Positions 5,042-45,675 of a stretch of DNA of 64,000 nucleotides are shown in pieces. Position 1 is the stretch's first letter; each line of letters starts with the position of its first letter. The notes beneath the pieces are model-generated. The model ran no database searches, was not told where the DNA came from, and saw only the letters and a program-made list of their open reading frames with translations. Made by a program: the position numbers and the translations under genes. Origin of the DNA: a virus (Duplodnaviria; Caudoviricetes); IMG/VR virus record IMGVR_UViG_2508501001_000004, positions 1 to 64,000 of that record; one strand, written 5' to 3'.

Positions 5042-5053
5042 CAGCCTCCCTCC

Positions 5054-6079: not shown

Positions 6080-6082
6080 TGC

Positions 6083-6499: not shown

Positions 6500-6503
6500 T
6501 TAT

Positions 6504-7541: not shown

Positions 7542-7943
7542 TTATGGGTTCACCTCCTGAGTCATCTCAAAGCTTCCGTAATTGCTGATGACTGTAAACG
7601 CAATGAGTAAACTATCCCCTATGATCGTTATCTGGATATTCTCAATACCGGTAATTCGATCATCCTGAGTTAAAGCTTCCCGGATCATTCGCGCAACCTC
7701 TGGTTTCAAAAAGAGCGGATTGCTGCCAATCAGATTCTCCAGCTCAGAACCATAATTTGCTGTGTAAATCAGGTGCTGAAAGCGTGGGGTTTGCAGAATC
7801 TTAAAGGCCGCCTGCTGAACTGCCTCAAGGCCGTCCAGTCTGCCCACAATTCGTTGTTTGGCTGCATCCAGTTTCCAAGTGAGTGACGGCTGCTCTATTT
7901 CTTCGATCCTATCCTTGCTTATACTTCCTCCCACTGGGATCAC
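7542..7943 (-). CDS. xkdS: DUF2634 baseplate protein
   Basis: T.RF.HLIYT.NYGSELE.LIG, EALTQDDRI motifs. Confidence 0.85.
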   Translation of the reverse strand: MIPVGGSISKDRIEEIEQPSLTWKLDAAKQRIVGRLDGLEAVQQAAFKILQTPRFQHLIYTANYGSELENLIGSNPLFLKPEVARMIREALTQDDRITGIENIQITIIGDSLLIAFTVISNYGSFEMTQEVNP

Positions 7944-8296
7944 ATCATCACCACCTTATCTAGAATTACAAATTTTTGGCCACCCTGGACTCGAAGTAAC
8001 AGGACCTTATCTCCCACTTTAAGACCAGGACGAATAATGACCTTAGAATTTAGGGCCTCGCTTGTTTCTCTTGAGGACCCGCTGTCTGTGTATTGATGAG
8101 TATGCATGAGATCCAGCTCGTACTTAATTAGACTTTCAGGCACAATCAAAAAATCCGCAGGCAGTGTAAAGCGTTGGTCGACTCTTACACTGAGCGGATC
8201 TACTGCGGCGACTTCTCCAAACATAATAGTTACAGGGTTGGAAGCTCCCATTGCATCCATCCCAGCCGCTTTTATAACATCCAGTAAACTTGGCAT
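7940..8296 (-). CDS. xkdR: DUF2577 baseplate protein
   Basis: GLKVGDKVLLLRVQGGQKFVILDKV motif. Confidence 0.85.
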   Translation of the reverse strand: MPSLLDVIKAAGMDAMGASNPVTIMFGEVAAVDPLSVRVDQRFTLPADFLIVPESLIKYELDLMHTHQYTDSGSSRETSEALNSKVIIRPGLKVGDKVLLLRVQGGQKFVILDKVVMM

Positions 8297-9282: not shown

Positions 9283-9293
9283 AATACACCTCC

Positions 9294-9959
9294 TTACGGC
9301 AGCTTTAGGACCCGGCCGATCTGAAGCCGCTTAATCTCGGCATCCGAAATGCCGTTTAAGGATTGCAGCTCCGGCCAGCGAGCTCCGCCTCCCAGTAATT
9401 TCTGAGCCACAGACCAAAGAGTATCACCGGCTGCAAGGGTATAGGTTTTGGGAGTCTGCTGCTCGTTTGGCCTTTCAGGGGCTTGAATTGTTTGTGTTGA
9501 GGCTGTGGCAGTTTCCAAAGTTGAAATGCTGACAGCTCGTCGTGCTGAATAAGGCACATATTTCTTCAACTTTAAGGAATAGTCGATATCACCTGATCTG
9601 CCGGCCTCTTCTTTCCAGTCAAAACCCTCAATACTGGCCAAGGTGTCGATATCAAAGGCATCGGAAATAACAATAAAGCGAATGGGCTGCTTAGCTTCCA
9701 TCCACTTTAGAATAAGTTTTACGTATTCATAGGGCTTCAGCAGGGGTTGAACTGTGACGAAAGGGTAAGGCTGGGCAGGAAAGAAGCTGCTGAAAGCATA
9801 CTCTGAGAGCTTGAGATTTTTTATAACATTGATTTCACCTAATTCCAGTACATCATAGGTTTTGTTTTTTCCGCCTTCTCCTATTTCGAAAGAACCAGGC
9901 ATGACCGGAAGTTGGATTGATTCGGTATTATTGAAGCTTAGATTGATGCCATAGGACAT
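9294..9959 (-). CDS. xkdP: XkdP-like tail tube initiator with LysM domain
   Basis: QLPVMP N-terminus; C-terminal YTLAAGDTLWSVAQK LysM. Confidence 0.85.
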   Translation of the reverse strand: MSYGINLSFNNTESIQLPVMPGSFEIGEGGKNKTYDVLELGEINVIKNLKLSEYAFSSFFPAQPYPFVTVQPLLKPYEYVKLILKWMEAKQPIRFIVISDAFDIDTLASIEGFDWKEEAGRSGDIDYSLKLKKYVPYSARRAVSISTLETATASTQTIQAPERPNEQQTPKTYTLAAGDTLWSVAQKLLGGGARWPELQSLNGISDAEIKRLQIGRVLKLP

Positions 9960-10028
9960 TTTATCACCTGCCTTATCTAGCATACTTCTGGGAAATTTCA
10001 TAAATTTAGAATTTCAGGCCTCTAACCC

Positions 10029-23879: not shown

Positions 23880-24200
23880 ATGTTAAGATTAACCAGCCAT
23901 TTTCGAAGGCATAAAACGCTCTGTATTCAGGTGGGAATTACGGCGGTCGTTATGTTCCTCTCCCCTACCGTTGCCCTCGCTTCAAGTGTTGATGACGGGG
24001 GAATGAAAATATACTGGAAGATCGTTAATGTAGGTAAATATGTGATTTTGGTTAAAGGTGCGGTTAACTCTATTCAGTCCGTTTTGGATGGGGATTACGA
24101 AAAAGCAAAGCACCAGTTTATAGGGTATCTTATATGTTTCGGAGCAATGCTTGCTCTCCCTGGAGCTTTAAATCAGATAGAGGAGTTGTTTAAGTCATGA
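23880..24200 (+). CDS. VirB2/TrbC pilin-like membrane protein
   Basis: Signal peptide ending VALA, two hydrophobic helices around GDYEKAK. Confidence 0.55.
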   Translation: MLRLTSHFRRHKTLCIQVGITAVVMFLSPTVALASSVDDGGMKIYWKIVNVGKYVILVKGAVNSIQSVLDGDYEKAKHQFIGYLICFGAMLALPGALNQIEELFKS

Positions 24201-24826
24201 TTATTGCGGCTTTAAAGACCGGAGTTATTTTAGCAATTGTAACAATGGTTATGACGAAGCCGGTTTTATTCATGAGCTACATGCATGTTATTGTTCTACT
24301 TGGCTGTACGTCGTTAATCGTTCTATACGTAGGAGGATTCAGGCCGGGTATCAGATGGGTCGGTATAACTTTAGTGGGATACATTCTGCTTCACATTTTC
24401 ATTGATGTAAACGGCAACGGAGAGACTTTCGTCAAAGGGGAATATATTGCTCCTGTAATTGGTCCTGTATCCAGCCCTTACGGACCGCGTGCCTCTTCCC
24501 CTGACGGTTTTCATTACGGTATCGACTTCGCCGTTCCCGAAGGAACCAGAGTGCTTGCGAGTAAGCCTGGTACAATATGCTTTGCCGGGTATAAGGGAAA
24601 TATCGTTGGGAACGTTGTAGAAATCAACCATCAAGACGGGGCGCAGACTATGTACGCGCATAACAGCCAGGTTTTAGTTTACGTAGGCCAATCCGTGCAA
24701 CAAGGTGACGTAATAGCTTTAAGCGGTAACACAGGCCGTAGCACTGGACCACATGTGCATTTTGAAATAAGGCTGGATAACGGGAAAACCTCAGTAGATC
24801 CTGCACCTCACTTAAATTTACAGTAA
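24197..24826 (+). CDS. Multi-TM protein fused to M23 peptidase
   Basis: HYGID, YAHN, STGPHVHFE M23 motifs; hydrophobic N-terminal ~70 aa. Confidence 0.85.
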   Translation: MIIAALKTGVILAIVTMVMTKPVLFMSYMHVIVLLGCTSLIVLYVGGFRPGIRWVGITLVGYILLHIFIDVNGNGETFVKGEYIAPVIGPVSSPYGPRASSPDGFHYGIDFAVPEGTRVLASKPGTICFAGYKGNIVGNVVEINHQDGAQTMYAHNSQVLVYVGQSVQQGDVIALSGNTGRSTGPHVHFEIRLDNGKTSVDPAPHLNLQ

Positions 24827-24838
24827 GGAGGCGACACA

Positions 24839-27196
24839 ATGAAGTCAATTAAACTTTGCGACTATATAGCAATCGTAAAGCCTTCCTACGTTTATTTAAA
24901 GCTTACACCTAATAACTCGATACGAAATAACACTTCCAATAATTTGGCAAAAACTATAGGCTCTCTTTACAAAACCTTTCATCAAAGCATAAAAATTGAA
25001 CACAAAAAATTAATTAAATTATTCGGGAAGAAATTCGTCTTGGGTTCCAAGTATTCTTTAATACTAAACCCCAAAGTTAGCTATTACATTTATATAGAAA
25101 AGAAACGGATCGAGTTTTACTTTATTGTTCCAGAGCAGTCTCAAAGCATTATTAAAGAAAAAATGACAGATTCCTGGAATAACGTAACAGTCCAAGCTGT
25201 GAATGAACTTCCAGGCTTCAACGAAGACGTCACTACCTACCAATTAGACTACTCAAAAGAAGATGGTCTCAGTCTTGCCGTTGACAAACGCAGTAACAGT
25301 CTCTTAGAAAGTAACCTTAATATAGTAGACATCATGCATGAAGGCGATAAAGTGGGGATCTTTTATAACTTTATTCCTACATCCCAACGAAGCTGGTTAA
25401 GTGAATATAAGGCTACCATCACTAAAGTACGCAAAGAGCAACCTGTAGATAAAAATAAGACTGGTATTATTTACTTATTTAAGCTGGCATTCTCCCTTTT
25501 ATCGGGGCTTGTAGACGATGTCGGCGGGTTCCTTGGTGATGACAGCCGTCAAAAATACTTAGTTAGGTATGAAAAGAACAATGCCTCTATTCTAGAGCAA
25601 ACATTACGTAGCGCAATTAATCATAAAGTAGTGTCTAATGCAACCGTAACTAAAGGCAAGCACATGGTACTAAATATTCAAGCTATCGTACTGAGTGAAA
25701 GTAAGGACGACCTACACCAGCGAAATAACGCAATAGCTCTAGCCCAAAGCTACGACTGCATAGGTGAAGATAATAGCTTACGACACCGAAAGTACAAAGG
25801 TAAATTCCATCACTTAGATACTAAGATTAAAGGGGCTGCTACGATGAAAGTAAGCGTTTACGAATGCGGCAACTTCTTGGCGCTCCCTGGACGTGAATTA
25901 CTTGAAAAACACAAGTTTATTGAAAAGGTAGAGACATTAGAGACTGAGGTGCCGGACGAACTCCTAAAGGGAGTAATGTGCTTAGGCGAAAACACGTACA
26001 AAGGCTATACACAAAAGGTCTACATGAGTACAGATTTTGATTATCAAATGCTTTCGCTGGTACTCATCGGGCCTAACCGGGCAGGCAAATCGAAGTTCCT
26101 TGCAAACATAGCCCGGGATGCTATTGAGGCAGGAGAGTGCGTAATCATCCCCGACTACATCGGGAGCTGCCAGCTAAGTGAAGAAATCGCAACAACCTTC
26201 CCAAGAGATAAAGTTCTGGAGATTAGGTGTGATCACTGGGATACGTTGCAAGGGCTTGGCTATAATGAGGTTCCACGAAGCACAACCCATTTTATCCAGT
26301 ACAAAAATGCTAAGGAGCAATCGGCTCTACTGATGACGCTCGTTGATAGCATTAATGCTGACGATGCAAACTTCACGGCTAAAATGGGGAGATATTTTGA
26401 AAGCGCGGCATTAGCGGTATTCCTGTCTAATGGTAATATAAAAGACGTATTCGCCACTCTAATTAATTACAAAGTCAGGAAGTCATTTATAGACCGAATA
26501 CCTGCAGAGCAAATGGAAAACATGGAAGAGTATATCGATTACCTACATGAGCTGGATAACGTTGAAAAAGGCAAGGTAGTTGGCACCAAGATGCACTTAA
26601 TTACCGGTGCTGTAGATAGGCTACAAAAGCTTAAGGTTAATGCTTATATCGAGACCATGCTTAAAAAAGGAACTGAGAATAATATTGATCTGGTTAAGGA
26701 AATGCAGAAAAACCAGCTTATAGTTATTAAGATGCCTCAGCGTATGTTTCTGACCGACAATGAGAAAGACGTTTATGTAACTTATTGGCTCACTAAGATA
26801 TGGCTTGCCCTGCAGATCCGGGAAGAGCAGATTCAAGATAGACGCAAAATGACTAAGGTAAACTTAATTATCGATGAGCTCTACCAAGTGAACAATGCGG
26901 AGAAATTCCTCAAGCTGAAACTTAGCCAGCTCCCGAAGTTTAATCTTAAACCTATCATCAGCTGCCATTACCTCAACCAAGTTAAGACTATCCGCGAAGA
27001 ATTCAGGAGCGCCAATGCGTCATATATGCTCATCAGCGGATGTGATAAAAAGAATTATGATGAGTTGAAAAGCGAACTATACCCCTATACGGAAGAAGAC
27101 TTGTTAAGCCTTAAGCGCTTTCACAGCTTGAACCTGATGAAGTGCAATGAAGGATACGCGAAGTTCATAACTAGCTTACCGGCACCTATTTCTTAA
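24839..27196 (+). CDS. Large HerA/VirD4/VirB4-superfamily P-loop ATPase
   Basis: Walker A GPNRAGKS, CVIIPD strand, Walker B LIIDE, ISCHYLNQ. Confidence 0.75.
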   Translation: MKSIKLCDYIAIVKPSYVYLKLTPNNSIRNNTSNNLAKTIGSLYKTFHQSIKIEHKKLIKLFGKKFVLGSKYSLILNPKVSYYIYIEKKRIEFYFIVPEQSQSIIKEKMTDSWNNVTVQAVNELPGFNEDVTTYQLDYSKEDGLSLAVDKRSNSLLESNLNIVDIMHEGDKVGIFYNFIPTSQRSWLSEYKATITKVRKEQPVDKNKTGIIYLFKLAFSLLSGLVDDVGGFLGDDSRQKYLVRYEKNNASILEQTLRSAINHKVVSNATVTKGKHMVLNIQAIVLSESKDDLHQRNNAIALAQSYDCIGEDNSLRHRKYKGKFHHLDTKIKGAATMKVSVYECGNFLALPGRELLEKHKFIEKVETLETEVPDELLKGVMCLGENTYKGYTQKVYMSTDFDYQMLSLVLIGPNRAGKSKFLANIARDAIEAGECVIIPDYIGSCQLSEEIATTFPRDKVLEIRCDHWDTLQGLGYNEVPRSTTHFIQYKNAKEQSALLMTLVDSINADDANFTAKMGRYFESAALAVFLSNGNIKDVFATLINYKVRKSFIDRIPAEQMENMEEYIDYLHELDNVEKGKVVGTKMHLITGAVDRLQKLKVNAYIETMLKKGTENNIDLVKEMQKNQLIVIKMPQRMFLTDNEKDVYVTYWLTKIWLALQIREEQIQDRRKMTKVNLIIDELYQVNNAEKFLKLKLSQLPKFNLKPIISCHYLNQVKTIREEFRSANASYMLISGCDKKNYDELKSELYPYTEEDLLSLKRFHSLNLMKCNEGYAKFITSLPAPIS

Positions 27197-27262
27197 ATAA
27201 AAAAGCAGAACCCCAGTGCTGCCCTAAACACCAGGTTTCTGCTCCAGCGATATATTCTTAAC
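27197..27262 (-). ncRNA. Putative sigmaK-driven small RNA convergent with ATPase gene
   Basis: GTCAC-N17-CATATAGT at 27297-27268 followed by an AGCAGAA/TTCTGCT hairpin and T6. Confidence 0.45.
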
Positions 27263-27301
27263 ACTACACTATATGTCCATGCCCCAGGATGTGTGACAAA
27301 G

Positions 27302-27329
27302 CGCCGGCTAATTGCCGGCGTCTTTTTTG
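27302..27329. terminator. Bidirectional terminator
   Basis: GCGCCGGC-loop-GCCGGCGT with T-runs. Confidence 0.7.
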
Positions 27330-27335
27330 CCGAGA

Positions 27336-27923
27336 TTAAAATTTCGGGAATTTCCCCTCATCAATAAGCCTTTGTCTTTGCTTAGCCATTTTGGCTGCTT
27401 CTCGCTTTTGCTTTTCCAAAAGCCCTTCTCTTTCCGCCTCGGCTTCCCTCCATGATATTAACTTAGGAATTGCCGCATAAATAAGGTTCTCTATAGATCC
27501 AAACTTTTTACCCGTAAATGGGCAAATATATTGCGTCTTTATGCCTATCTCGGCCAACTCTGCGCCCTTGGGGAAAAGATTACGTATAAGATCATCCTTT
27601 ACGTCAGCGATAACTCCCTGGGAAGGATCTAGACTGTGCACATAGATATAGTGGTCCCAGTCTCTCATTAGGTCTTGCATCGTGTAAACAATCCCGCTCC
27701 TCTCAACGGCTTTAGGAGATGGGTCTTTCTTCTTTTGAGCCTTAACCGGGGCCGGGTTCATTTTTTCCTGTATGGCCGCATTAACGAAGGCGTTAACGCT
27801 CAAGCCTTTCTTCTCGGCAAAAGCTTGGATTACTTCCTTTTCCCCTTTTTTCACAGTAAGGGGTATCCGATCATATGCCTTTTCGTTATACTTTCGATTT
27901 GCTTTAGTTCGCGCCGTGGGCAT
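27336..27923 (-). CDS. Arc/RHH DNA-binding protein with C-terminal extension
   Basis: ANRKYNEKAYDRIPLTVKKGEKEVIQAFAEKKGLSVNAFV. Confidence 0.75.
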   Translation of the reverse strand: MPTARTKANRKYNEKAYDRIPLTVKKGEKEVIQAFAEKKGLSVNAFVNAAIQEKMNPAPVKAQKKKDPSPKAVERSGIVYTMQDLMRDWDHYIYVHSLDPSQGVIADVKDDLIRNLFPKGAELAEIGIKTQYICPFTGKKFGSIENLIYAAIPKLISWREAEAEREGLLEKQKREAAKMAKQRQRLIDEGKFPKF

Positions 27924-27956
27924 AGCATCACCTCAACCTAAGCATAACACAAAAAA

Positions 27957-28031
27957 TGTACTAACGCTAGTATAATTATAATTGACTATGTACTAGCGCT
28001 ATGGTATATTATATGTAATAACACTAGTACA
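27957..28031 (+). promoter_or_regulatory. sigmaA promoter with TGTACTA(A/G)CGCTA repeats
   Basis: TTGACT-N17-TATATT; two direct repeats and an inverted CTAGTACA copy. Confidence 0.7.
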
Positions 28032-28050
28032 TACAAAGGAGGCCGCCACA

Positions 28051-28248
28051 ATGACGAACTTTACCACCATCACCGAACTTGAAATACTCCGCTTAGCATC
28101 CTTTGAATTGCTAGCAATGGCAAGCAAAGAAGCTGATAGGCTGAGGGCCAACCCCGAAAGCCAAATCGCACAGCACCGCCACAACAAGTTTTACAAGCAA
28201 TACGATGAGATAAAAAAGAGAATAATCACATTGGAAAACGCAATATAA
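28051..28248 (+). CDS. Small helical hypothetical protein
   Basis: AAAGGAGG RBS directly after promoter. Confidence 0.7.
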   Translation: MTNFTTITELEILRLASFELLAMASKEADRLRANPESQIAQHRHNKFYKQYDEIKKRIITLENAI

Positions 28249-28305
28249 AAACCAAAGCCGAAAGCCGGGCGGCTAAGCCCGGCGTGATGAGAAAGGATGA
28301 TATGT

Positions 28306-28455
28306 GTGAATTCTAAGGTATATGAAGACAATTATGGAATATGTCGTTGTGAAAAGTGCAGCACTGAATTACTATGCGATGAAAATGGGGATATGCCTGA
28401 TGTTTGCCCATCGTGTAAAACTACTCTTGACTGGTCCATTTACGAACCCGCCTGA
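28306..28455 (+). CDS. Small zinc-ribbon protein (49 aa); stop codon lies in the ribozyme core
   Basis: AAAGGA RBS, GTG start, CEKC...CPSC. Confidence 0.65.
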   Translation: MNSKVYEDNYGICRCEKCSTELLCDENGDMPDVCPSCKTTLDWSIYEPA

Positions 28456-28519
28456 CGATGGCCTGAGGGACCAGGCCGAAACCTAACCCGGACAAGCCCC
28501 GGGGAGGTCGCGGGATCCC
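28447..28519 (+). ncRNA. Type I hammerhead ribozyme
   Basis: Stem I CCCGC/GCGGG, CUGACGA, stem II GGCCUG/CAGGCC, GAAA, stem III CCU/AGG + CCCGG/CCGGG, GUC cleavage triplet at 28507-28509. Confidence 0.9.
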
Positions 28520-28656
28520 GCTTCGAGCTGGCTTTGCAAAGTCAGCCTTGATATAGATTTTGATCTTTGTGGCCTAAATATTTATACTTTCGGCAGGAAT
28601 CTCCATAATTTAAGAGAAACTATACTAAAAATACAATATTTTGGGGGTTGTTCATA

Positions 28657-29574
28657 ATGGGGGAACAATTGCGGAAAGCGGCATATAAGGGCGACGTTGT
28701 CATTGGTAATATTAGAATACCTTGCGCTGTGTTAGACAATGGGAAAAGAGTATTAAGCGAAACTGGTATAACCCATGCTATACTAGGAACGGCAAGCGGT
28801 GCATCAAGGCGACTAAAAAAAGAACACCAAGAAGCCGGGGCCCCTTTGCCCGTTTTTATAGCCCCTAAAAACCTGAAACCCTTTGTTGATAAGGCTTTAG
28901 ATGTCGGGTCCCTTGATCCAATTTTATATTTAGACGGGAAAAGAACCGTCAGTGGTTACGATGCATCAATTCTTCCTACTGTATGTGATATTTGGCTTAA
29001 TGCAAGAGAGGCAAATATATTACAGAAACAACAATTAGATAAGGCATTGAAAGCAGAAATTCTTATGAGGGGCCTTGCTCATACAGGTATAATAGCTTTG
29101 ATTGACGAGGCTACTGGATATCAAGAAGTAAGAGAAAAAGATGCCCTTCAAAAATTGCTAGCCATTTACTTGACAGATGAAAGACTAAAATGGGCAAAAA
29201 TGTTCCCAGATGAATATTATCGACAACTATTTAGATTGAGAAAATGGAATTATGATCCCCTTGATACACACAGACCGAGATTGGTTGGAAAATTGACTAA
29301 TCAATTGGTATATGAAAAGCTGCCCCCCGGTGTTCTTGATGAGCTAAAGAAATTGAACCCCGTCAAAAATAAACAGTCAGGTAGAAGAGAAGCTACCCAC
29401 CACCAACATCTTTCAACAGACATTGGACAAAAGGACTTACGTGACCATCTTATGCAGTTGATAGCTATCATGAGGATATCATCTTCGTGGGAAATATTTA
29501 AAAAGAATTTTCAAAAGGCTTTTCCTCCTTCAAGCGGAATACAGGAAGAATTATTTGAAGAAGAAGATCTATAA
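28657..29574 (+). CDS. P63C-domain protein
   Basis: GIIALIDEATGYQ..R...ALQ..L..YL...W.K.FPDEYY; HHQHL. Confidence 0.85.
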   Translation: MGEQLRKAAYKGDVVIGNIRIPCAVLDNGKRVLSETGITHAILGTASGASRRLKKEHQEAGAPLPVFIAPKNLKPFVDKALDVGSLDPILYLDGKRTVSGYDASILPTVCDIWLNAREANILQKQQLDKALKAEILMRGLAHTGIIALIDEATGYQEVREKDALQKLLAIYLTDERLKWAKMFPDEYYRQLFRLRKWNYDPLDTHRPRLVGKLTNQLVYEKLPPGVLDELKKLNPVKNKQSGRREATHHQHLSTDIGQKDLRDHLMQLIAIMRISSSWEIFKKNFQKAFPPSSGIQEELFEEEDL

Positions 29575-29717
29575 CACAAAAAAAGCCCCCATCGTTTTCA
29601 ATGGGAGCCTAAGCTTGTAACCTTATGGGACAATCTGGCATAGTATGTATTGCGGTGTAGACATGGCATCGCTTCCTTTCTGATAAAGGGGGAGAGTTTA
29701 GGCGAGGCTCTCCCCTG

Positions 29718-29966
29718 TTACATTTTCCAGAGCATCCACTTGCAGGCCTGCACCTCATAGTTAAGTTCAAATACCTTTAGTATTCCATCAATTTCACTCT
29801 GGCAGCGGAAAATGATCATGCGCTTGCCAGCGATTTTTTCTTCCACCGTATGTACCACGCGCTGGACTTGGACCACAGATCCCTCGTGTCTGAATCGTAC
29901 CGGATGAGGTTTACCGGCTTGATCGAACCATGCTACCATTTCCACCGGCTTAGCGATTATTTTCAT
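29718..29966 (-). CDS. Conserved small protein under a LexA box
   Basis: KPVEMVAWF..G.P.PVRF; FEL.YE....KW.L motif; AAGGAG RBS. Confidence 0.7.
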   Translation of the reverse strand: MKIIAKPVEMVAWFDQAGKPHPVRFRHEGSVVQVQRVVHTVEEKIAGKRMIIFRCQSEIDGILKVFELNYEVQACKWMLWKM

Positions 29967-37281: not shown

Positions 37282-37893
37282 TTACTCATAAACTTTCAAC
37301 TCATTCCAGTTCATAACATTCACGCCATTCCAAGCGAGATGCTTCAGGGAGTCCCACCACGTATAGGAATATTTAAAGCTGTAAGCCAAGTGAGCCGGTT
37401 TAATCTGCTCGATCATCGCCATAAACCCGGGCATATTCGTCGGGATACCCTTGGTCCCAATAAAGCGGACCTCAAAGCGGTACTCTGACGGGTACTCAAT
37501 CACATCCACCTCGCCCCCGGAAAAAGCAATGGCCGTATCCTTAATCATTTGCTTCGTGGTTGTCCCCGACCCGCGCAGTTTGGCCTTGATCTGTTCCCGC
37601 CTTCGCTCTATAGATTTCGTCGGTTCTGTCTCTAGACCCAGCTCACTTTCCCAGTAAGCTAAGCCCCATGTGGCGGTATCTACAAAGCATTGGTCCAGCA
37701 GGTCATTCATGGAAAATAAAAAAAGACCCAGCTCATTGGACGCAGTCTCCTGTAACTTTTTCATTTCCCGTACGCTCTGATAATACTCGGGTAGATATCT
37801 CATGAGGTCGGGCTTTGCATACTCAGGCTGGTCCCCGTCGTTGCCGTCAGTCCCAAAAAGGGTGGTGCCATAGATTTGGTTTCCGTATCCCAT
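37282..37893 (-). CDS. xkdU: YmfQ/DUF2313 baseplate protein
   Basis: ATWGL, IKPAHL motifs. Confidence 0.85.
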   Translation of the reverse strand: MGYGNQIYGTTLFGTDGNDGDQPEYAKPDLMRYLPEYYQSVREMKKLQETASNELGLFLFSMNDLLDQCFVDTATWGLAYWESELGLETEPTKSIERRREQIKAKLRGSGTTTKQMIKDTAIAFSGGEVDVIEYPSEYRFEVRFIGTKGIPTNMPGFMAMIEQIKPAHLAYSFKYSYTWWDSLKHLAWNGVNVMNWNELKVYE

Positions 37894-37897
37894 CGGC

Positions 37898-38392
37898 TCA
37901 CACCCCCTTTAGCTGGTTCCAGGTTACCCCGGGACTCAGTTTCCCCGCGGCCAGGTCATAAGCTGTTTTTACGGCATTGGCCGTGGCTGCCTGAGTGGTT
38001 GAGGTGCTTGTCATTGTATTATTTAGTTGAGATATTCCCGCAGCACTTGTAGATGCCGCTGGCAGTCTCGCTATGGCCACCGTTCCGGCATTGATATCGC
38101 TGGCATTATGTGTGTGTCCCACCGGAGTAAAGGTGCTTGGCTTTCCCGAGACCCCAGTCCAGGGGACACTCTCCGCCACCTCCGCTACATCCACTTTGCC
38201 GTCATTATCCGTGTCATAAATGCTTTTCAGCATATCCCCGACGGTTTGGGCAGCCACCAATAGTTCATTGCCGCTTTCTGTTCCTATATAAAGCTTCTTG
38301 GTATCCGTGCAGAAGCCTAACTCCCCTACTGCCAAGGTTCCAATGCTACCCTCAAGGCCACGCCTAATCTGGATCAATACTTTTCTTGCCAT
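37898..38392 (-). CDS. Mtd_N-like tail fibre-associated protein
   Basis: Paralog of 4490-5041 with a different middle. Confidence 0.6.
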   Translation of the reverse strand: MARKVLIQIRRGLEGSIGTLAVGELGFCTDTKKLYIGTESGNELLVAAQTVGDMLKSIYDTDNDGKVDVAEVAESVPWTGVSGKPSTFTPVGHTHNASDINAGTVAIARLPAASTSAAGISQLNNTMTSTSTTQAATANAVKTAYDLAAGKLSPGVTWNQLKGV

Positions 38393-38404
38393 CAGCCTCC
38401 CTCC

Positions 38405-39430
38405 TTAGAATGTTCCTCCATCCACAATGGATACCATCAACCTATTTCCATTGGCCGAGTCATAGACAAGACTGCTGGCATCAATATTGGCCTCAATGCC
38501 CGTGCTGTTGACGAGGATTCCTTTCCCAGCTTTAGCGCTAACCGAAGTCGAAGCAACGGAGATCCCGTTCCCCGCCCCTACCGTCAATGTCACTGTGTCG
38601 GCCTGCCCGCCCCCCGTTAAACCATTGCCGGCAGTAATCGTCTGCAGGGCTCCACCGGTTCTTACCCAAGCTGTCCCGTTCCAGCTGTAGATTTTTTGTT
38701 CCTCATCAACGTAGCAGGTCCACCCAATCTGAGGCGGGTAATAGGACCAGGCTCCTGATGCATATTCGGCAATTTGATCCTGTTTCCCGGACCACACACC
38801 CGTTGCGCCGCTGGGGATGATATAGCGATCTCCGGTCACTGGACTGCCCGGTGGGGCTGTAGTGGTACGATTCTTCACACTGGCTTGAGGTTCGATGTTG
38901 TGCTTAGCTAATTCAATTTCATTACCAATTTTTTGAGCACTCCATAAGTCGGTTATGGCTGTCCCCGAGTCATTGATAAGGCGGTGTTTAGCCGCATCGT
39001 CAATATGAGATTTTATTTCAGCCGCAGTTTTCGTGTTAGTACCATCTGATACTTTGTTAACCTGGCCGTTGGTTATGTCTGATTTTTTAACCTTTGCATA
39101 GGTTGTTCCATCAGACACATCATCCAAGGTTCCGGTTAAATCTGTTATCTTTTGGGCGTTAACACGCTGCCAGGCCGAAACCGTATCAAAATACAGATAG
39201 CCTGCATTGGTGCCACTGGTGACATAGTAAAGCCGCCCTAATGTCCCAGCATTGGGCCGGGCCGCTTCTGTCCCAGATAGTGCTCTGCCGACAAAAACAT
39301 TGGCAGTGCCGTCCCCGATGTAAACTTCCTTAGTATCTGTGCAAAACCCCATCTCTCCTGATGACAAAGCACCTAGGGCCACTAGCTCGGGCTTGGTACC
39401 TCGGCGAATTTTAATTGTTTGTGCCGCCAA
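38405..39430 (-). CDS. DUF2793-containing tail protein
   Basis: Paralog of 5054-6079. Confidence 0.75.
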   Translation of the reverse strand: MAAQTIKIRRGTKPELVALGALSSGEMGFCTDTKEVYIGDGTANVFVGRALSGTEAARPNAGTLGRLYYVTSGTNAGYLYFDTVSAWQRVNAQKITDLTGTLDDVSDGTTYAKVKKSDITNGQVNKVSDGTNTKTAAEIKSHIDDAAKHRLINDSGTAITDLWSAQKIGNEIELAKHNIEPQASVKNRTTTAPPGSPVTGDRYIIPSGATGVWSGKQDQIAEYASGAWSYYPPQIGWTCYVDEEQKIYSWNGTAWVRTGGALQTITAGNGLTGGGQADTVTLTVGAGNGISVASTSVSAKAGKGILVNSTGIEANIDASSLVYDSANGNRLMVSIVDGGTF

Positions 39431-39433
39431 TGG

Positions 39434-39850
39434 TTATACCTCCTCTCTAATAAATCCACCGCCGTCGATGATTCCTGTTGCTTTATATCTCTCTATCTCT
39501 GCTTGGGTTCGAATCAGACTGTCTTGTAAATTGTTAACATCCTCCGCCTCTACCATATCCCCGGGGGTCTCATAGGTAACATAGACCGTCTCTGTTTGGG
39601 CGAAGATTTTAATCGAACGTTTCCAAGGCGTCTCAGAAGGAATGGATACAATGAAGTTTGTCACTGGGATACCTGTAAACTGTGGTCCTGTGTAAACTCT
39701 GATTGTGCTGTTCGTAATGTTGTCGTGACCTAAGAAACCCTGGTACACCCCGCCATTAATAGGCAGCTCTTCTTCAACCGTGTAAACGCTGCCGTCCGAC
39801 TTCTTGTTAAGTTTTTCGGTAAATTGGTCAATCTGATCCGGATAAGGCAT
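39434..39850 (-). CDS. Conserved tail/baseplate-associated protein
   Basis: Paralog of 6083-6499. Confidence 0.6.
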   Translation of the reverse strand: MPYPDQIDQFTEKLNKKSDGSVYTVEEELPINGGVYQGFLGHDNITNSTIRVYTGPQFTGIPVTNFIVSIPSETPWKRSIKIFAQTETVYVTYETPGDMVEAEDVNNLQDSLIRTQAEIERYKATGIIDGGGFIREEV

Positions 39851-39854
39851 AGTT

Positions 39855-40892
39855 TTACACCCCCAGTTCCACGGTCCCAAATACCGGGATTTCTTCGTCC
39901 GCCAGAGCGATATTGGCACTGCCGCCGTTGACTAGCAACGTAGTATAGTCGATGACACCTGGTGTGCTAAGGAGCAGGTTCCCAATCTTGGCATAACTGA
40001 CATAGGTGTTGATAAAAGCTGTATCCTGCAGATAGCTTTCCACCTCTACCTTAAAAGCGTCCGTTACACCTTGGATAGCATAGCCGGATGCTAAAACGGC
40101 AGTCGCCGTAACACTGATCTCTTTAGCTGCTGCCGAAACGACGGTCACAGCGGCTCCAATAGGGCGTACGGTCTCAACATAGTCTGATACAGCGTCCACC
40201 AAAGTGGAGGTAGCTGGCTGCTTTTCAGCATCAACAATGACAACCTTTACCGTCCCTGACCCCTCCCAAAGTGGAAAGACCTTAGCGCCTCCCACTCCAG
40301 CCACTTCAGACGCCCACTGCCGATATTGAGCAGCATTCCCAGACGTTGCCGGCTGACGAACCCGCTGTAGATAGCGCTGCCTGAGGCTGTCGTCGGTTTC
40401 TGCATTCGTTCCCGGAATGAGAATGTCGGACAGCTCGGCCTGCACCAACCCGGGGATATAGTCAATCGGCATCAGCGTACCAAAGTATTGATTGCCGACA
40501 GTACCGGCAGTTTCGCACTCCAGAATATACTGACCCGACGCGATTTTTTCTTTGGCAGCATACCTTACCTGCTCAATGGAAAAGCGGCTGCCGATGGCCA
40601 CATCCAGCGGGGTATCATTTTGCCCGTAAAACATTGCCTTCCGCTGGGCCTTCGTGGCGACTCTACGAGTAACCCCATAATCCATCGTCCTTAATTCCAG
40701 GTAATCTCCGCTTGATGTTTGAGCCGAGAATAGCCTTAGGTTGACTTCCAATTCTGCATAAGCCTGGGCCAGTTCTGCTGCAGCCGGGGATAAGGCGTCA
40801 TAAATAATGCTGCCCTCACGTTTGTCCAGATCCCCAGGCACCCGGTCTAACATTCTGTCCAAGATGGACTCATACGTTTGGCCCTCATACAC
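39855..40892 (-). CDS. xkdT: Baseplate J-like protein
   Basis: DKREGSIIYDA, SGNAAQY motifs. Confidence 0.9.
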   Translation of the reverse strand: MYEGQTYESILDRMLDRVPGDLDKREGSIIYDALSPAAAELAQAYAELEVNLRLFSAQTSSGDYLELRTMDYGVTRRVATKAQRKAMFYGQNDTPLDVAIGSRFSIEQVRYAAKEKIASGQYILECETAGTVGNQYFGTLMPIDYIPGLVQAELSDILIPGTNAETDDSLRQRYLQRVRQPATSGNAAQYRQWASEVAGVGGAKVFPLWEGSGTVKVVIVDAEKQPATSTLVDAVSDYVETVRPIGAAVTVVSAAAKEISVTATAVLASGYAIQGVTDAFKVEVESYLQDTAFINTYVSYAKIGNLLLSTPGVIDYTTLLVNGGSANIALADEEIPVFGTVELGV

Positions 40893-41294
40893 TTACACCC
40901 TCACCTCCTGAGTTATCTCAAAACTCCCGTATTTGCTGATAACTGTGCACTCAATGAGCAGACCATCTCCCGTGACTGTAGTCCGTATATTCTCAACGCC
41001 GGTGATTCGGTCATCCTGGGTTAACGCTTCTCTGACCATGCGGGCAGCCTCTGATTTTACAAAGACCGGATTCATTCCGACTAACTTCTCTATCTCAGAG
41101 CCGTAGTTTGTTGTGTAGATTAAGTGATGATAACGAGGCGTCCCCAGGATCTTAAAGACAGCCTGTTTGACCGCCTCAAGGCCGTCCAGTCTGCCGGCAA
41201 TTCGTTCTTTAGCTGCATCCAGCTTCCATGTGAGGGATGGCTGCTCCGTTTCTTCAATCACACCGTTGTTGATGCTTCCGCCGGTCGGTATCAT
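40893..41294 (-). CDS. xkdS: DUF2634 baseplate protein
   Basis: HLIYTTNYGSE, EALTQDDRI. Confidence 0.85.
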   Translation of the reverse strand: MIPTGGSINNGVIEETEQPSLTWKLDAAKERIAGRLDGLEAVKQAVFKILGTPRYHHLIYTTNYGSEIEKLVGMNPVFVKSEAARMVREALTQDDRITGVENIRTTVTGDGLLIECTVISKYGSFEITQEVRV

Positions 41295-41647
41295 GTTGTC
41301 ACCACCTTGTCTAAGATTACAAATTTCTGCCCGCCTTGGACCCTGAGCAGCAGGACTTTGTCCCCCACCTTAAGCCCAGGGCGGATGATCAGTTTAGTTG
41401 TCAGGGCCGTAGCTGTGGTTCTTGATGATCCATCATCAGTGTACTGATGAGAGTGTGTCAGGTCGACTTCATACCGGGTTAAACTTTCCGGCACAATTAA
41501 AAAATCCGCCGGCAGTGTAAAGCGTTGGTCGACTTTCACACTCAGCGGACTTATGGTTAGTATCTCTCCAAACATAACATTCACAGGGTTTGATGCCCCT
41601 ACAGCATCTATCCCCGCAGCTTTTATTACATCCAATAAGCTTGCCAT
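41291..41647 (-). CDS. xkdR: DUF2577 baseplate protein
   Basis: GLKVGDKVLLLRVQGGQKF. Confidence 0.85.
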   Translation of the reverse strand: MASLLDVIKAAGIDAVGASNPVNVMFGEILTISPLSVKVDQRFTLPADFLIVPESLTRYEVDLTHSHQYTDDGSSRTTATALTTKLIIRPGLKVGDKVLLLRVQGGQKFVILDKVVTT

Positions 41648-42633
41648 TATACCACCTTCATAATTGCTTTAAGTTCCAGGCTCATCGTATGGTCTGCACC
41701 TTCGAAATAATGCTTACATTCATCCACTAAAAAGGGCTGATTGATTTCGTACTCTTGAATCTGTATCCTTAGATAACTCCCGGCCCTTACTCGGAGATCA
41801 CCGATAGCTTCGATTTTCAGCGTCCTTGATTCCCGGTTTTTCAATGTGACCAGACTATCGAGCAGCTCATTAATCTGAGCATCGTTCATGTTTTCATCCA
41901 CACTTTGATAGAGCTGCAACACGCCCCACTTAGCCATATTGGCGCTGTCTTGGGCCTGATAGATTTCGCGCTTGCCGCTTTCCTTGTTGTCTTTGTAAAG
42001 CTTAATTTTATTGTAGGTGTCATCATCAATGGATATCTTGTGACTATAATCGGTCATGAGGCTGGCATCGCCAATGATGAAATCCAGCAGTAAGTCCTCA
42101 ATATTCCGCACCGACAAAGCTCCAAAGTCATCGAAGAACACATAATTTTTGCCAGCATTCATCAGAGTTAAATCTAAGGCTTTGCAGATCGTATCGAAAA
42201 GCTTTTGGTCATTTTGGGACATCGTCGGAATTATATACCCCGTATCATCGATCCGCCCAAGTTTGAGCTTGAAGTCGGCGGCAATGGTTTTAATGACCTC
42301 AGAGGCTGTGACGTTTGCAAAGACATAGGTTTCATTCGCCATGAGGTACCGTAGTTGATCATAGCAAGTAATCTTAACTGCCTCGTCCCTTCCCCCTTCA
42401 ATGGAAAAGACATAGCCGTAGAAGACATTGACACCATCCTCAACTTCCTGGACCCGGACAATATCTCCATTGCTGTACTTGAAGGCTGCATCTTGCCCTA
42501 AAGCGTTTTTGATTAGCGTAAACTCCAGGCTGCCGGCTTTGCCGATCCTGCTCGTTTTCCAGGTGACGTCCGAGACAATCTGAGAGATATCCCACACGTT
42601 TCCATCTTTGTTATCGATCAGTATTTTTAGCAC
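41647..42633 (-). CDS. xkdQ: XkdQ/YqbQ hub protein
   Basis: Paralog of 8296-9282. Confidence 0.85.
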   Translation of the reverse strand: MLKILIDNKDGNVWDISQIVSDVTWKTSRIGKAGSLEFTLIKNALGQDAAFKYSNGDIVRVQEVEDGVNVFYGYVFSIEGGRDEAVKITCYDQLRYLMANETYVFANVTASEVIKTIAADFKLKLGRIDDTGYIIPTMSQNDQKLFDTICKALDLTLMNAGKNYVFFDDFGALSVRNIEDLLLDFIIGDASLMTDYSHKISIDDDTYNKIKLYKDNKESGKREIYQAQDSANMAKWGVLQLYQSVDENMNDAQINELLDSLVTLKNRESRTLKIEAIGDLRVRAGSYLRIQIQEYEINQPFLVDECKHYFEGADHTMSLELKAIMKVV

Positions 42634-42643
42634 AGTGCACCTC

Positions 42644-43309
42644 CTATGCCAACTTTATTACTCGGCCAACCTGCAGCCGTTTGATCTCAGCATCAGATAT
42701 GCCGTTCAATGATTGTAACTCTGGCCAGCGACCTCCATTGCCTAATTGCTTCTGTGCTACAGCCCATAGAGTATCCCCGGCTGCGAGAGTATAGGTTTTA
42801 GGTGGCGGCTGCTCATTAGGCCTCGCTGGGGGCTGGGATTGGATGGCTTGAGTGGACACTGAAGCGATTGTCATTGTTTGGGCAACGACAGCCCGGCGTG
42901 CGGAGTAAGGCGTGTATCGTTTCAATTTTAAGGTATAGTCAATATCCCCGGAGCCGGCAGATTCCTTCCAGTCAAAACCTTCAATGCTGGCCAGTGTGTT
43001 AATGTCAAACGTTTCGGAGATAAAAACAAAACGGATGGGCTCTTTAGATTCCATCCACTTTAGAATGCGTTTTACATATTCGTAAGGTAGCAACAAGGGG
43101 GAAACCGTGACAAATGGGTAGCGTTGTGCCGGGAAGAAACTGCTAAACGCATACTCTGAGAGTTTGGGGTTTTTTATGACGTTGATTTCCCCTAGGGCTA
43201 CAACATCATAGGTCTTGTTATTCCCGCCCTCTCCAATTTCCAGGGCGCTGGGCATGACGGGAAGCTCAATGGTTTCTGAGTATAAGCTCAGTTTGATGCC
43301 GTAGGGCAT
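42644..43309 (-). CDS. xkdP: XkdP-like LysM protein
   Basis: ELPVMP; C-terminal LysM. Confidence 0.85.
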   Translation of the reverse strand: MPYGIKLSLYSETIELPVMPSALEIGEGGNNKTYDVVALGEINVIKNPKLSEYAFSSFFPAQRYPFVTVSPLLLPYEYVKRILKWMESKEPIRFVFISETFDINTLASIEGFDWKESAGSGDIDYTLKLKRYTPYSARRAVVAQTMTIASVSTQAIQSQPPARPNEQPPPKTYTLAAGDTLWAVAQKQLGNGGRWPELQSLNGISDAEIKRLQVGRVIKLA

Positions 43310-43315
43310 AGGTGA

Positions 43316-43480
43316 TCACCTGCCTTTATTAATATGGCTATTCAGTATGCCTATCGCCTTACAAAAAGTGCTGCGTGACCAACCCTCTGCTGAGGCCTTT
43401 TCCAAGATGGAGGTTGCTATTTCAAGACTGTCCTGAATCTCTTGAATCGGTTTGCTTAAATCTACCGTTACGCTTACCAA
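43316..43480 (-). CDS. Small hypothetical inserted between TMP and xkdP
   Basis: AAGGGGAG RBS then TTG; absent from element 1. Confidence 0.4.
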   Translation of the reverse strand: MVSVTVDLSKPIQEIQDSLEIATSILEKASAEGWSRSTFCKAIGILNSHINKGR

Positions 43481-43497
43481 GCATATTCTCCCCCTTC

Positions 43498-45633
43498 TTA
43501 CGCCCATGCTCCTGCCGCAGATGAAGCAATATCAGTCTCCAGCATGGTTTTAATCTTTCCTACTATAGTGTCCACGCTCTGTCCGTTGTGAATATCCCCG
43601 GTTGTGACTGCTACTGTCGGCGTCAGCGTTACAAAGTTCTGGATGTTCTTCATTTCGGCTAATTCGCGCATGATCTTTAGGTCTTCGTTGGAGATATCGA
43701 CTTTATCCTTGATTTTGCCGACTTCATCCACTTTGCCTATATTGGGGATGTTGCCCAAGTCGAAATCCGTCAGCGTATTTGTTCCAAGGTTTGACAGGCT
43801 GAATTTGTCCGAAACCTTGTTGCCCCAGTCATACCCGGTGTTGAAAGCGTTAGTGTAATCGAATCGACCAGGAAGGTAATTGTGGGGATCTAATCGCGGA
43901 ATCTTTATTTCTACTTCACCCACTAAGTCATCAGCCATCCCCTGAAGATCGCCCCTCCATCCATTGATTGCATCCGACAGATGCTTTCCAGTCAACGTGT
44001 CAATTGCCGAAGCTATAGTCTCTAATATTCCTAAAACTGTATCCCCCAAGCCAACGAACAATCGGACAATGGAACCTACCGGGTCATTAAACACATTTCT
44101 AATAGATTCGGCGACCGTTGCGATTACATTCCAGATTGTCGCGACGACATTAATAACAATTTTAAGGATCGCTAAGACGATGTTCATAATAACCGCTCCG
44201 GCGAACATGAATGCCCCTGCAATAAGCCCTGTGGCAGAATAGCTCGTGCCGGCAAATTTATTGATGGCGGCTATTACAACATAGAAGATAGCTATTAATG
44301 CGATGATGCCAACAATTATCCATGTTATAGGACATGCAAGCAAAGCCGCATTAAGTCCGTCTTGGGCTATTATTAATGCAATTATTGCCGCAGTTTCCGC
44401 CCAAGAAGCAATGGCATGCGCTCCTTTTACTGCCAAATCTTTTAAGGTCGTAAGCCACGCAATCCCCATTACCGCATTATAGGCTATTAAAGCACCCACA
44501 ACTCCCCAAATAATAGGTTCAATAATGCCCCAATTGTTTTGCACCGCATTTCCAACTAAAATCAAGCCCGAAATTAAACCGTTTATTGCACGAGCTAATA
44601 TATTGATTCCAATTGTTAGATTATCTATGAACGCGGCCCCACCAGGCGAGTTGATCAAGCTATTTATCTTCTCAATGACAGGACCAAAGGCTTTGAGTGC
44701 GTTATTTCTTAACTTATTGAACATATCTGCAAACGTCATAGGCATTGTCGCAAACTTTGAATTTATATCATCCGCCGCATTGAACAAGGCACCTTTAATA
44801 ATGTCTGAAGTAATCGTCCCCTCTGCAGACATCTTTTTAAGCTCACCTTTGGATTTTCCCGTGAAATCAGCGATAGCGCTTGCCAGCATGGGGGCGTTTT
44901 CCATGATGCTGCGAAACTCATCACCTTGAAGCTTTCCCGCAGCCATCGCTTGAGTGAGTTGGTACATACCGGACTGCTGTTCCATGGTGGATGAGCCACC
45001 AACCTTGAAGGATTTCTGCATAAGTTCTGTGAATCTAATAATTTCATTATTGTTGGAAAAAGCATCTCCAGCCAGGAGGCCAAGTTTTCCCACACTACTT
45101 GCCATGACGCCATAAATTCCATACGCCCTATCTGCTGTAGCAAATATCTTGTCTTGAAGCTGCACGTCCGTTTGAGAACTATCGTTAATCAGTTTAAGTC
45201 GGGCCTGCGCTGATATATAGCTATCACTAGTATTCATAGCTGCCCTTAGACCCATTAAACTAATATAAGTTGCTACAATCCCCTTAATATTAGAAAGCAT
45301 CATGCTTGTATGGTGTGCACCATTTTGAGCCGACGCGTTGAATCTATCCTGTGCACTTGACGCTTGGTTGATAAGGCTTGCACTGCTCTGACTTGATTGG
45401 TTAAATCGTTGTTGTGCCCGAGTGGACTGGTCAATAGCCTGCCTTATGCCCGCTTCGGCTGCGGCTATTCTCTCTTGGGCTGCTACAAGCGTCCTGCCAA
45501 CATTGGTATTTCGTTCGGTAGCACTTTGCATTTGCCGCATACTTGACACCATGAGATTCATTCCCTGCGTTATGTTTTGTAGCGGCCTAGACATTGCGTC
45601 GAACATCCTCAGTGTAGCACTGATGGTTGGCAC
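43498..45633 (-). CDS. Tail tape measure protein
   Basis: Tape_meas motif AMYQLTQAMAAGKLQGDEFRSIMENAP. Confidence 0.92.
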   Translation of the reverse strand: MPTISATLRMFDAMSRPLQNITQGMNLMVSSMRQMQSATERNTNVGRTLVAAQERIAAAEAGIRQAIDQSTRAQQRFNQSSQSSASLINQASSAQDRFNASAQNGAHHTSMMLSNIKGIVATYISLMGLRAAMNTSDSYISAQARLKLINDSSQTDVQLQDKIFATADRAYGIYGVMASSVGKLGLLAGDAFSNNNEIIRFTELMQKSFKVGGSSTMEQQSGMYQLTQAMAAGKLQGDEFRSIMENAPMLASAIADFTGKSKGELKKMSAEGTITSDIIKGALFNAADDINSKFATMPMTFADMFNKLRNNALKAFGPVIEKINSLINSPGGAAFIDNLTIGINILARAINGLISGLILVGNAVQNNWGIIEPIIWGVVGALIAYNAVMGIAWLTTLKDLAVKGAHAIASWAETAAIIALIIAQDGLNAALLACPITWIIVGIIALIAIFYVVIAAINKFAGTSYSATGLIAGAFMFAGAVIMNIVLAILKIVINVVATIWNVIATVAESIRNVFNDPVGSIVRLFVGLGDTVLGILETIASAIDTLTGKHLSDAINGWRGDLQGMADDLVGEVEIKIPRLDPHNYLPGRFDYTNAFNTGYDWGNKVSDKFSLSNLGTNTLTDFDLGNIPNIGKVDEVGKIKDKVDISNEDLKIMRELAEMKNIQNFVTLTPTVAVTTGDIHNGQSVDTIVGKIKTMLETDIASSAAGAWA

Positions 45634-45675
45634 AATTAATCCCCCCTTGCGTAGCATAAGAAAAAGCACCCCCCA

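Follow-up and report, generated by a model that had tools for sequence, protein, structure and literature searches.

We analysed a 64,000-nucleotide (nt) stretch of DNA (the window; positions 1 to 64,000 of IMG/VR virus record IMGVR_UViG_2508501001_000004) and found that 28447-28521 is, as judged from its sequence, a genuine and probably active type I hammerhead ribozyme whose cleavage can be predicted. Compensatory changes among its relatives indicate that the RNA fold is under selection, and comparison of loci shows that the hammerhead closes a conserved operon of tiny genes under separate control. Our favoured reading, with modest confidence, is that it is a module for 3'-end processing within a small accessory operon, located in prophage-derived DNA from a Desulfosporosinus-type bacterium.

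A type I hammerhead and its family

28447..28521, plus strand: type I hammerhead ribozyme, including the 3' tail that pairs with loop II (descriptor, covariation, covariance model, fold energies)

The original prediction, a model's reading of the letters of this stretch, had described a complete type I hammerhead with one extra U, a possible pseudoknot between loop II and the RNA beyond the cut, a stop codon within the core and a downstream competitor of stem I, and all four were found in place. Stem I, open where stems II and III are closed, pairs CCCGC (28447-51) with GCGGG (28510-14). The core CUGACGA (28452-58; N7 is C or U in relatives) lies directly 3' of the stem I 5' strand, and an extra U at 28459 separates it from stem II, leaving A9 not adjoining the G10.1-C11.1 pair. 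U4-G5-A6 of the core (28453-55) doubles as the UGA stop codon of the preceding open reading frame (ORF), ORF2. Stem II has 6 base pairs (bp; 28460-65 with 28472-77) and a loop AGGGAC, and it is followed by GAAA (28478-81), which supplies G12-A13-A14 and A15.1. Stem III is made of outer pairs ACCU/AGGU (28481-84 with 28505-08) and an inner CCCGG/CCGGG helix; its A28481-U28508 pair (A15.1-U16.1) is constant in 43/43 aligned sequences. The cleavage triplet is GUC (28507-09), and the cut is predicted between 28509 and 28510. GGGA of loop II (28467-70) can pair with UCCC of the tail (28516-19), which would form a tertiary contact between stem I and the stem II region, and this pairing covaries in relatives. 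A strict type I descriptor, which asked for the core, 0-1 inserted base, at least 4 bp in stem II and then GAAA, 4 bp in stem III with A-U as the closing pair, any base but G at the point of cleavage and 5 bp in stem I, found a single site on both strands of the window (128 kb) and 0 sites in 200 shuffles that kept local composition.

To place the element among relatives, we searched the DNA of 69 genomes in the same family and obtained matches in 20. These fall into two blocks, 28447-28569 and 28248-28310, separated by unconserved sequence of variable length. The first base of the first block is also the first base of stem I (28447), and its last base is 28569; the ORF that precedes it is unconserved. 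A gapped pattern scan, which covered one genome per species, gave 50 stretches; 37 were judged to be family members and 13 to be chance matches. The members belong to Desulfosporosinus, Desulfitobacterium, Paenibacillus, Cohnella, Sporomusa and several Clostridia-type metagenome bins. The ribozyme is present in three classes of Firmicutes, and the element was also found on five viral contigs. Among the full-length copies found by BLAST, the core is intact in 11/15. A BLAST search of GenBank phages with 27900-28700 gave no match.

The relatives were assembled into an alignment (A2) of 43 sequences, of which 32 were derived from the pattern scan; in those 32, the search pattern fixed the core, GAAA and part of the stem I 3' strand, and information comes from stems and loops only. 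Paired cells made up 90.3% in A2, compared with 79.0% after shuffling (0/500 shuffles as high) and 28-42% when the partners were slid. Pairs in which both sides had changed were found at 5/6 positions of stem II, 2/4 of stem III, 1/5 of stem I and 2/4 of the loop II/tail pseudoknot. Compensatory double changes thus occur in three stems and the pseudoknot, showing that the RNA fold is under selection. Loop II and tail are capable of at least 3 Watson-Crick pairs in 42/43 sequences, with a mean of 3.84 pairs between a loop and its own tail vs 3.62 with permuted tails (39/5000 permutations), and the variants include GGAU/AUCC, GGAA/UUCC and GCGGA/UCCGC. The extra U is present in 32/43 sequences, missing in 10 and replaced by G in one. 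A covariance model built from A2 scored the window at 82.4 bits (E 4e-18) and found 3 copies in this genome and matches in 18/69 family genomes, a patchy distribution typical of mobile DNA. The further copies in the same genome, C1:3292621-3292704 (locus L089) and C1:1140688-1140770 (L022/L088), each lie behind an unrelated small ORF. Several elements have changed in a coordinated way in L089: stem I is CCCAC/GUGGG, the pseudoknot is GGAA/UUCC and the tail repeat is CCAC.

The established models are silent on this family. At gathering score, the Rfam hammerhead, twister, pistol, hatchet and RAGATH models gave no match in the window; at E<=10, the same ribozyme families gave none on the 500 nt and 100 nt around the site, and RF00163, run across the whole genome, did not match the locus. 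The hammerhead models at gathering score also miss relatives that have a canonical core and lack the extra U (L046, L069, L076, L080, L082-L084, L054, L037 and L074). The blind spot therefore covers the whole subgroup rather than the insertion alone, and Rfam-based counts of bacterial hammerheads are therefore too low. Rfam's silence at the site is what a chance likeness to the hammerhead consensus would lead one to expect, but the 0/200 shuffles, the covariation and the conserved family practically refute that explanation.

The operon before the predicted cut and the module behind it

The cassette that the hammerhead ends, and the sequence that follows it, contain these features:

27336..27923, minus strand: gene of a 195-amino-acid (aa) regulator whose N-terminal ~55 aa are a probable ribbon-helix-helix (RHH) DNA-binding domain (weak profile matches)
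27957..28031, no strand assigned: control region with three operator-like palindromes and a sigma-A-type promoter
28051..28248, plus strand: ORF1, 65 aa, helical, without known family (ORF call, profile searches)
28256..28283, plus strand: intercistronic GC block, read as an H-type pseudoknot (conservation, compensatory change in its helix S1)
28297..28455, plus strand: ORF2, 52 aa from ATG, two CxxC pairs, stop codon formed by the hammerhead core UGA (ORF call)
28527..28546, plus strand: GC-rich hairpin behind the ribozyme (structural replacement, G-U pairs)
28547..28569, plus strand: conserved U/A-rich tail with boxes YUUKAYAUAKA and then UUGWUCUUUG at variable spacing (conservation)
28570..29578, plus strand: insertion with a P63C-domain gene at 28648..29574 (Pfam P63C, E 3.5e-31)

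The original prediction had seen here an RHH-repressed cassette of tiny genes with a strong sigma-A promoter and repeated sites. The divergent gene is present, and its RHH label comes from weak profile matches. The regulator matches phrog_13890 (E 5.7e-25) and the Arc-like phrog_582 (E 0.002); profiles against PDB gave AvtR (E 0.008) and Arc (E 0.12), and a NikA-like match had E 0.016; those that point to RHH are all weak, and PDB searches with the RHH protein and with ORF2 gave nothing significant. Its homologues are few, and the part that they have in common is the N-terminal ~55 residues. The promoter, TTGACT-17-TGgTATATT (27982-28010), is near consensus, matching at 10/12 positions, with a -35 element TTGACT (27982-87) and a TG-extended -10 element TATATT (28005-10). 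The repeated sites proved to number three, not two. They are of the type TGTACTA-N4-TAGTACA and lie upstream of -35 (27957-74), between -35 and -10 (27989-28006) and just past -10 (28014-31).

Homologues of the regulator with 65% and 50% identity were found on two independent metagenome contigs, L134 and L136, and both contigs repeat the layout of the cassette. There, the divergent regulator is followed by a promoter with three operators, a first ORF that differs from locus to locus without any relationship, the GC block with a ribosome-binding site, a second ORF, a Twister-P5 ribozyme, a third ORF, the hammerhead (70-78 bits with our covariance model), the hairpin, the tail and a convergent terminator. 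The promoter frame is the same, and at its three operator positions stands another palindrome (of the AATAACGTCATT type). The sequence of the candidate operators thus changes together with the regulator. The sister loci, together with the recurrence of the stop codon in the core (14/40 loci), bear out the proposed cassette in its layout, while the RHH identity of its regulator stays weak. Twister-P5 (RF02684; gathering score 37.6) scored 47.5 bits at L134:3268-3336(-) and 45.4 bits at L136:3247-3315(-); including a third case, L014:1862-1932(-), the range is 38-47.5 bits. In L014, the Twister-P5 lies between two cargo genes and the cassette ends in the same hammerhead. A Twister-P5 search of the window and its genome gave no match, and the window has one hammerhead only.

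The cargo between the conserved blocks is variable. ORF1 has a strong AAAGGAGG ribosome-binding site 8 nt upstream and is unrelated in sequence to the first ORF of the sister cassettes. ORF2 more likely starts at GTG 28306 (49 aa), to judge from the spacing to its ribosome-binding site. Language-model features alone mark it as zinc-ribbon-like (score 0.92), a lead rather than a test; a homologue search found none, and comparison with the zinc-ribbon ORF of L003 showed no similarity. Within 1.5 kb of the other hammerhead copies, no homologues of the RHH protein, ORF1 or ORF2 were found. Among the cargo ORFs of relatives, 31/35 had no Pfam match and 28/35 no PHROG match, the exceptions being two HicB-like genes, one PC4-like gene and one DUF.

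The GC block lies just 5' of the ORF2 ribosome-binding site. It belongs to the second conserved DNA block (28248-28310, 82-93% conserved), which is followed by an unconserved ORF. It had been described as two mutually exclusive hairpins, a description that does not hold: S1 (AGCCG/CGGCU, 28256-60 with 28270-74) and S2 (GCCGGG/CCCGGC, 28264-69 with 28278-83) share no bases, are therefore not mutually exclusive and fit an H-type pseudoknot with a first loop AAA (3 nt), no second loop and a third loop AAG (3 nt). In S1, GCCG/CGGC has become GCUG/CAGC in L008, a compensatory change for which L007 and L003 show wobble intermediates; this covariation is suggestive but thin support for the predicted pseudoknot. 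The ~30-nt block also occurs in L003, L007, L008, L012, L014-L016, L020, L022 and L034 and further in L060, L134, L136, L140 and L141. It has no Rfam family match at E<=10 on 28200-28700. Two other identities were considered and rejected. For a hammerhead remnant in the block, as for a second hammerhead anywhere upstream, our covariance model with filters off gave at most 4.4 bits; as a twister, 28256-83 gave no match at E<=10 on 28200-28700, and its likeness to twister goes no further than a P4-like hairpin that has an AAG loop end. Lying between cistrons and before the ribosome-binding site, the block stands where other loci have a twister, and it might be a processing site or an end-protecting structure.

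Behind the ribozyme, the hairpin and tail complete the conserved module. In five loci the hairpin at 28527-46 has been replaced by an unrelated one (GGGAG...CUCCC) with the flanks kept, and its G-U pairs are possible only in plus-strand RNA. It is probably the stem of a weak intrinsic terminator; a simple terminator rule leaves it unflagged, and the tail that follows has 4 U in its first 8 bases. The tail is conserved from Desulfosporosinus to Paenibacillus and Sporomusa, homology stops at 28569 in all loci, and the tail continues, at most of them, into the A-tract of a convergent terminator. Three roles proposed for the tail were rejected. Its pairing with the cargo ribosome-binding site or start region gave duplex energies not better than shuffles (z from +0.8 to -2.8 across loci; +0.8 in the window). 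For a kissing contact between the GAUC/GAAC of the mini-hairpin just after the cut and the GAUC/GUUC of the tail, the correlation tracks phylogeny, and at least six exceptions occur. The tail could be read as a promoter of the following gene (TTGATC-17-TATACT) in the window only; other loci have no -10 element and the spacing of the boxes varies. L006, L017 and L019 are deletion scars: the sequence from 27336 to about 28490-28516 is gone, and what is left is the 3' portion of the ribozyme together with hairpin and tail.

The ~1-kb P63C insertion is peculiar to the window, where it separates the tail from the convergent terminator (29580-29610); L017 has just 6 nt between its homologues of 28517-28569 and of 29579-29843. 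A link between the hammerhead module and P63C was rejected: the gene is an insertion, and no P63C homologue lies within 1.5 kb of other copies. The sequence GATCT stands at both junctions of the insertion, as seen against L017, L019 and L006.

The cassettes adjoin lysis genes, and their neighbours include holin, amidase, GH25 and Rha genes. In L134 and L136, holin and amidase genes stand immediately upstream in the opposite orientation, and endolysin genes converge on the module in L047, L052, L079 and L084.

What the cut may do

Near the cut, the RNA has an alternative fold. The downstream CCCGC (28517-21) can compete for stem I, and the minimum-energy fold contains a GCGG-GAUC-CCGC hairpin (28510-28521) in place of stem I. 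The active and the alternative fold have similar energies (-33.5 against -31.9 kcal/mol), to which the pseudoknot adds about -6.4. The hairpin is backed by the coordinated change in L089 and is missing from a subclass with a AACCCAAUUAG tail; it is therefore real, though not universal. We infer that it acts as a trap for the cleaved 3' product rather than as a regulatory switch.

The proposed mechanism is as follows. Once 28514 has been transcribed, stems I-III and the loop II/tail pseudoknot would fold and the RNA would be cut after C28509. The cargo mRNA would then end, 54 nt past its stop codon, in a compact GC-rich ribozyme body carrying a 2',3'-cyclic phosphate. It would be uncoupled from whatever lies downstream, which here would be terminator read-through into the next gene and in most relatives read-through entering a convergent gene. 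The released 3' piece would refold into the 5'-terminal hairpin GCGG-GAUC-CCGC, and because this would remove stem I, we propose that the cut would be irreversible. Stop codons in or just before the core would keep ribosomes from reading through and unfolding the ribozyme. The earlier suggestion that self-cleavage releases defined RNA pieces would fit the sister loci, where Twister-P5 also separates cistrons.

Several points weigh against this 3'-end processing. The core is broken in 4/15 full-length copies (CUAUCGA, CCGACUA, GGAA and a deleted GAAA), and its invariance, like that of part of stem I, is not evidence in 32/43 aligned sequences, because the search pattern fixed those positions. 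The extra U may slow catalysis, the Rfam hammerhead models leave the site unreported, and the AACCCAAUUAG subclass would have no trap for the 3' product. Seven related loci retain hairpin and tail after loss of the 5' half of the ribozyme, and the hammerhead is therefore dispensable for whatever role these have. The terminator alone could end the transcript, and the supposed benefit of the cut, stabilisation or insulation of the mRNA, is conjectural.

Other roles have to be set against the same evidence. The position of the stop codons raises the possibility of a ribosome-gated switch, in which a ribosome terminating at the core keeps stem I and the core unfolded, so that cleavage reports translation and sets the lifetime of the message. 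In 14/40 loci the upstream ORF terminates on the core UGA, its protein ending in Pro-Ala, and in another 16/40 its stop lies 4-9 nt ahead of CUGA, mostly as UAA directly before stem I. In L134 and L136, the UGA of the second ORF likewise lies inside the 5' part of the twister. A ribosome at these stops would, from its established footprint, cover stem I, and a competing hairpin exists that covaries in L089. However, the cut falls 54 nt past the stop and leaves the ORF intact, so cleavage alone does not inactivate the message. Tight modular packing explains the stop positions equally well, the module itself supplying UAA and UGA at its 5' edge. The remaining 10/40 stops are farther away (7/40 at 10-19 nt before CUGA and 3/40 beyond that distance, with 0/40 past the core), and no covariation was found between ORF ends and ribozyme. 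In Firmicutes, moreover, transcription usually outruns translation, and folding and cleavage would therefore normally precede the first ribosome. We regard gating as improbable, though it is the alternative to which we give most weight. Somewhat less probable still is that the useful product is the downstream RNA, the hammerhead setting the 5' end of a hairpin-tail RNA or, here, of a P63C leader. Conservation of 28510-28569 exceeds that of the ribozyme stems; this sequence breaks off sharply at 28569, its tail is conserved across bacterial classes, and it is the part kept in the seven loci that have lost the 5' half. Yet the tail runs straight into a convergent terminator in most loci, the P63C insertion was found in this window alone, and structural replacement is shown by the hairpin only. 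The tests for pairing of the tail with the start region and with the 5' mini-hairpin failed, and the loci in which it survives without the ribozyme speak against any need for a defined 5' end.

It is distinctly unlikely, in our view, that the blocks act mainly as DNA recombination linkers for swaps of small genes, with the ribozyme as a decaying passenger. Such a role would account for the unrelated ORFs between sharply bounded blocks that are 75-93% identical, for the common broken cores and deletion scars, and for the patchy presence in 18/69 genomes. It would not account for the compensatory double changes in all stems and the pseudoknot, which point to selection on the RNA fold, nor for a ribozyme that stays intact over three Firmicutes classes while stems II and III are rewritten; linker and RNA roles are in any case not exclusive. 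We place similarly little belief in a bolder scheme, in which the tiny cistrons would be excised as end-capped mini-mRNAs, the stop in the core gating the timing of the cut, and pieces with a ribozyme at both ends being circularised by RtcB, a ligase that the genome encodes. If it were true, the upstream boundary would be the pseudoknot block or, in the sister loci, the twister giving a 5'-OH, and the downstream boundary would be the hammerhead giving a 2',3'-cyclic phosphate. The end-capped pieces would be unusually exonuclease-proof, and the circular messages for phage accessory proteins would be a natural counterpart of engineered twister-flanked circular RNAs.

Relation to known systems and neighbouring sequence

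Prophages are known to carry single genes and short blocks of genes that are flanked by self-cleaving ribozymes (Perreault et al. 2011, PMC3088659; Weinberg et al. 2019, PMC6765202), and processing of polycistronic prophage RNA by such ribozymes has been proposed and shown in vitro for other loci (PMC3088659). The cassette resembles these arrays in that a hammerhead lies directly behind a variable small gene in prophage DNA, in that the sister loci add a twister and so recreate the classic twister-plus-hammerhead context, and in that processing of a polycistronic transcript is the proposed function (PMC3088659, PMC6765202). It differs in that the window holds one terminal hammerhead rather than several, in the fusion of the hammerhead with the hairpin and the conserved tail into one 123-nt module, and in a dedicated divergent RHH regulator with three operators, of which we found no mention in the consulted passages of these two papers. 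The locus is thus a ribozyme-punctuated accessory operon, recognised by its sequence in the slot after prophage lysis genes, and this layout has been known since 2011 (PMC3088659). The new elements are few: a widespread subgroup of tail-pseudoknotted type I hammerheads that Rfam misses, including members without the extra U; the hammerhead, hairpin and tail as a portable 123-nt module; a putative dedicated RHH-type regulator with co-changing candidate operators; the recurrent use of the core UGA as a stop codon; and an uncatalogued pseudoknot block.

Type I hammerheads with a pseudoknot as the contact between stems I and II have been described (Perreault et al. 2011, Figure 2, PMC3088659), and the (+) hammerhead of the viroid CChMVd tolerates an extra base between A9 and G10.1 (A10) at an only moderately lower rate (PMC1636495). 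The hammerhead described here shares with both an open stem I and a loop II that pairs with a strand beside stem I, and with CChMVd (+) the single extra nucleotide between A9 and G10.1. In contrast to CChMVd (+), the extra base is U and not A (32/43 have U, 10 have none), and the family is borne by bacteria and phages, not by a viroid. Unlike in pseudoknotted hammerheads and CChMVd, loop II pairs here with a 3' tail that is also able to fold onto the 3' strand of stem I. Core consensus and three-helix junction are the same in the Rfam hammerhead models (RF00163, RF00008, RF02275-RF02277 and the RAGATH hammerhead variant), yet these leave the site unreported even at E<=10 on 100 nt. A precedent for cleavage that alters the fate of one RNA piece in a Firmicute mRNA is the glmS ribozyme of Gram-positive bacteria, whose self-cleavage yields a 5'-OH product that host RNases can remove (PMC6765202). 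However, glmS lies in the 5' untranslated region, needs a metabolite and makes the coding RNA less stable; in the present cassette, the coding sequence precedes the predicted cut. The purpose of bacterial and phage hammerhead and twister ribozymes is still open (PMC6765202). The locus does not settle it, and offers an unusually complete unit to test, with a defined promoter, a candidate repressor and operators, two or three tiny cistrons, stop codons within ribozyme cores and natural deletion variants. The Paenibacillus relatives are easier to cultivate than the anaerobic Desulfosporosinus.

Phage accessory operons can be placed under a small autorepressor, as in Arc/Mnt-type RHH control and in anti-CRISPR operons with Aca repressors. 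The cassette would resemble these in its palindromic operators over a strong promoter, in a regulator gene beside tiny, fast-changing cargo and in an operator sequence that changes with the regulator. It differs in that its cargo has no known anti-defence, toxin or antitoxin family, except for HicB-like and PC4-like genes in 3/35. To our knowledge, such operons have not been described as ribozyme-terminated.

Further observations concern the surroundings of the cassette. Upstream lies an operon (23880-27196) for a 106-aa membrane protein, an M23 peptidase and a 785-aa P-loop ATPase (phrog_5156, with a weak TrwB-like match), and a homologous 785-aa gene also stands upstream of the L079 hammerhead cassette. 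In L004, L006 and L019, a tRNA-Leu(CAG) gene lies 90-600 nt upstream of the homologue of 27199-27328; in the window, which is free of tRNA genes, the 785-aa ATPase module stands on that side. The tRNA-Leu neighbours hint at an integration hot spot. Downstream, an 82-aa ORF (29718-29966, minus strand) without Pfam family has a structured ~140-nt 3' region (29580-29717) with its own terminator. The DNA of this region is multi-copy, present in 31/69 family genomes with up to 8 matches per genome, and is usually convergent to the hammerhead module. On the viral contig of L034, an RT-14 RNA (RF02921, 63 bits; L034:5224-5371(-)) lies ~4 kb from the hammerhead cassette. Elsewhere in the window, 3179-12044 and 37282-45669 are paralogous runs of minus-strand ORFs with a near-identical series of lengths (341, 138/161, 345, 133, 118, 328, 235/221 and 671/723 aa), which look like duplicated phage-tail gene clusters.

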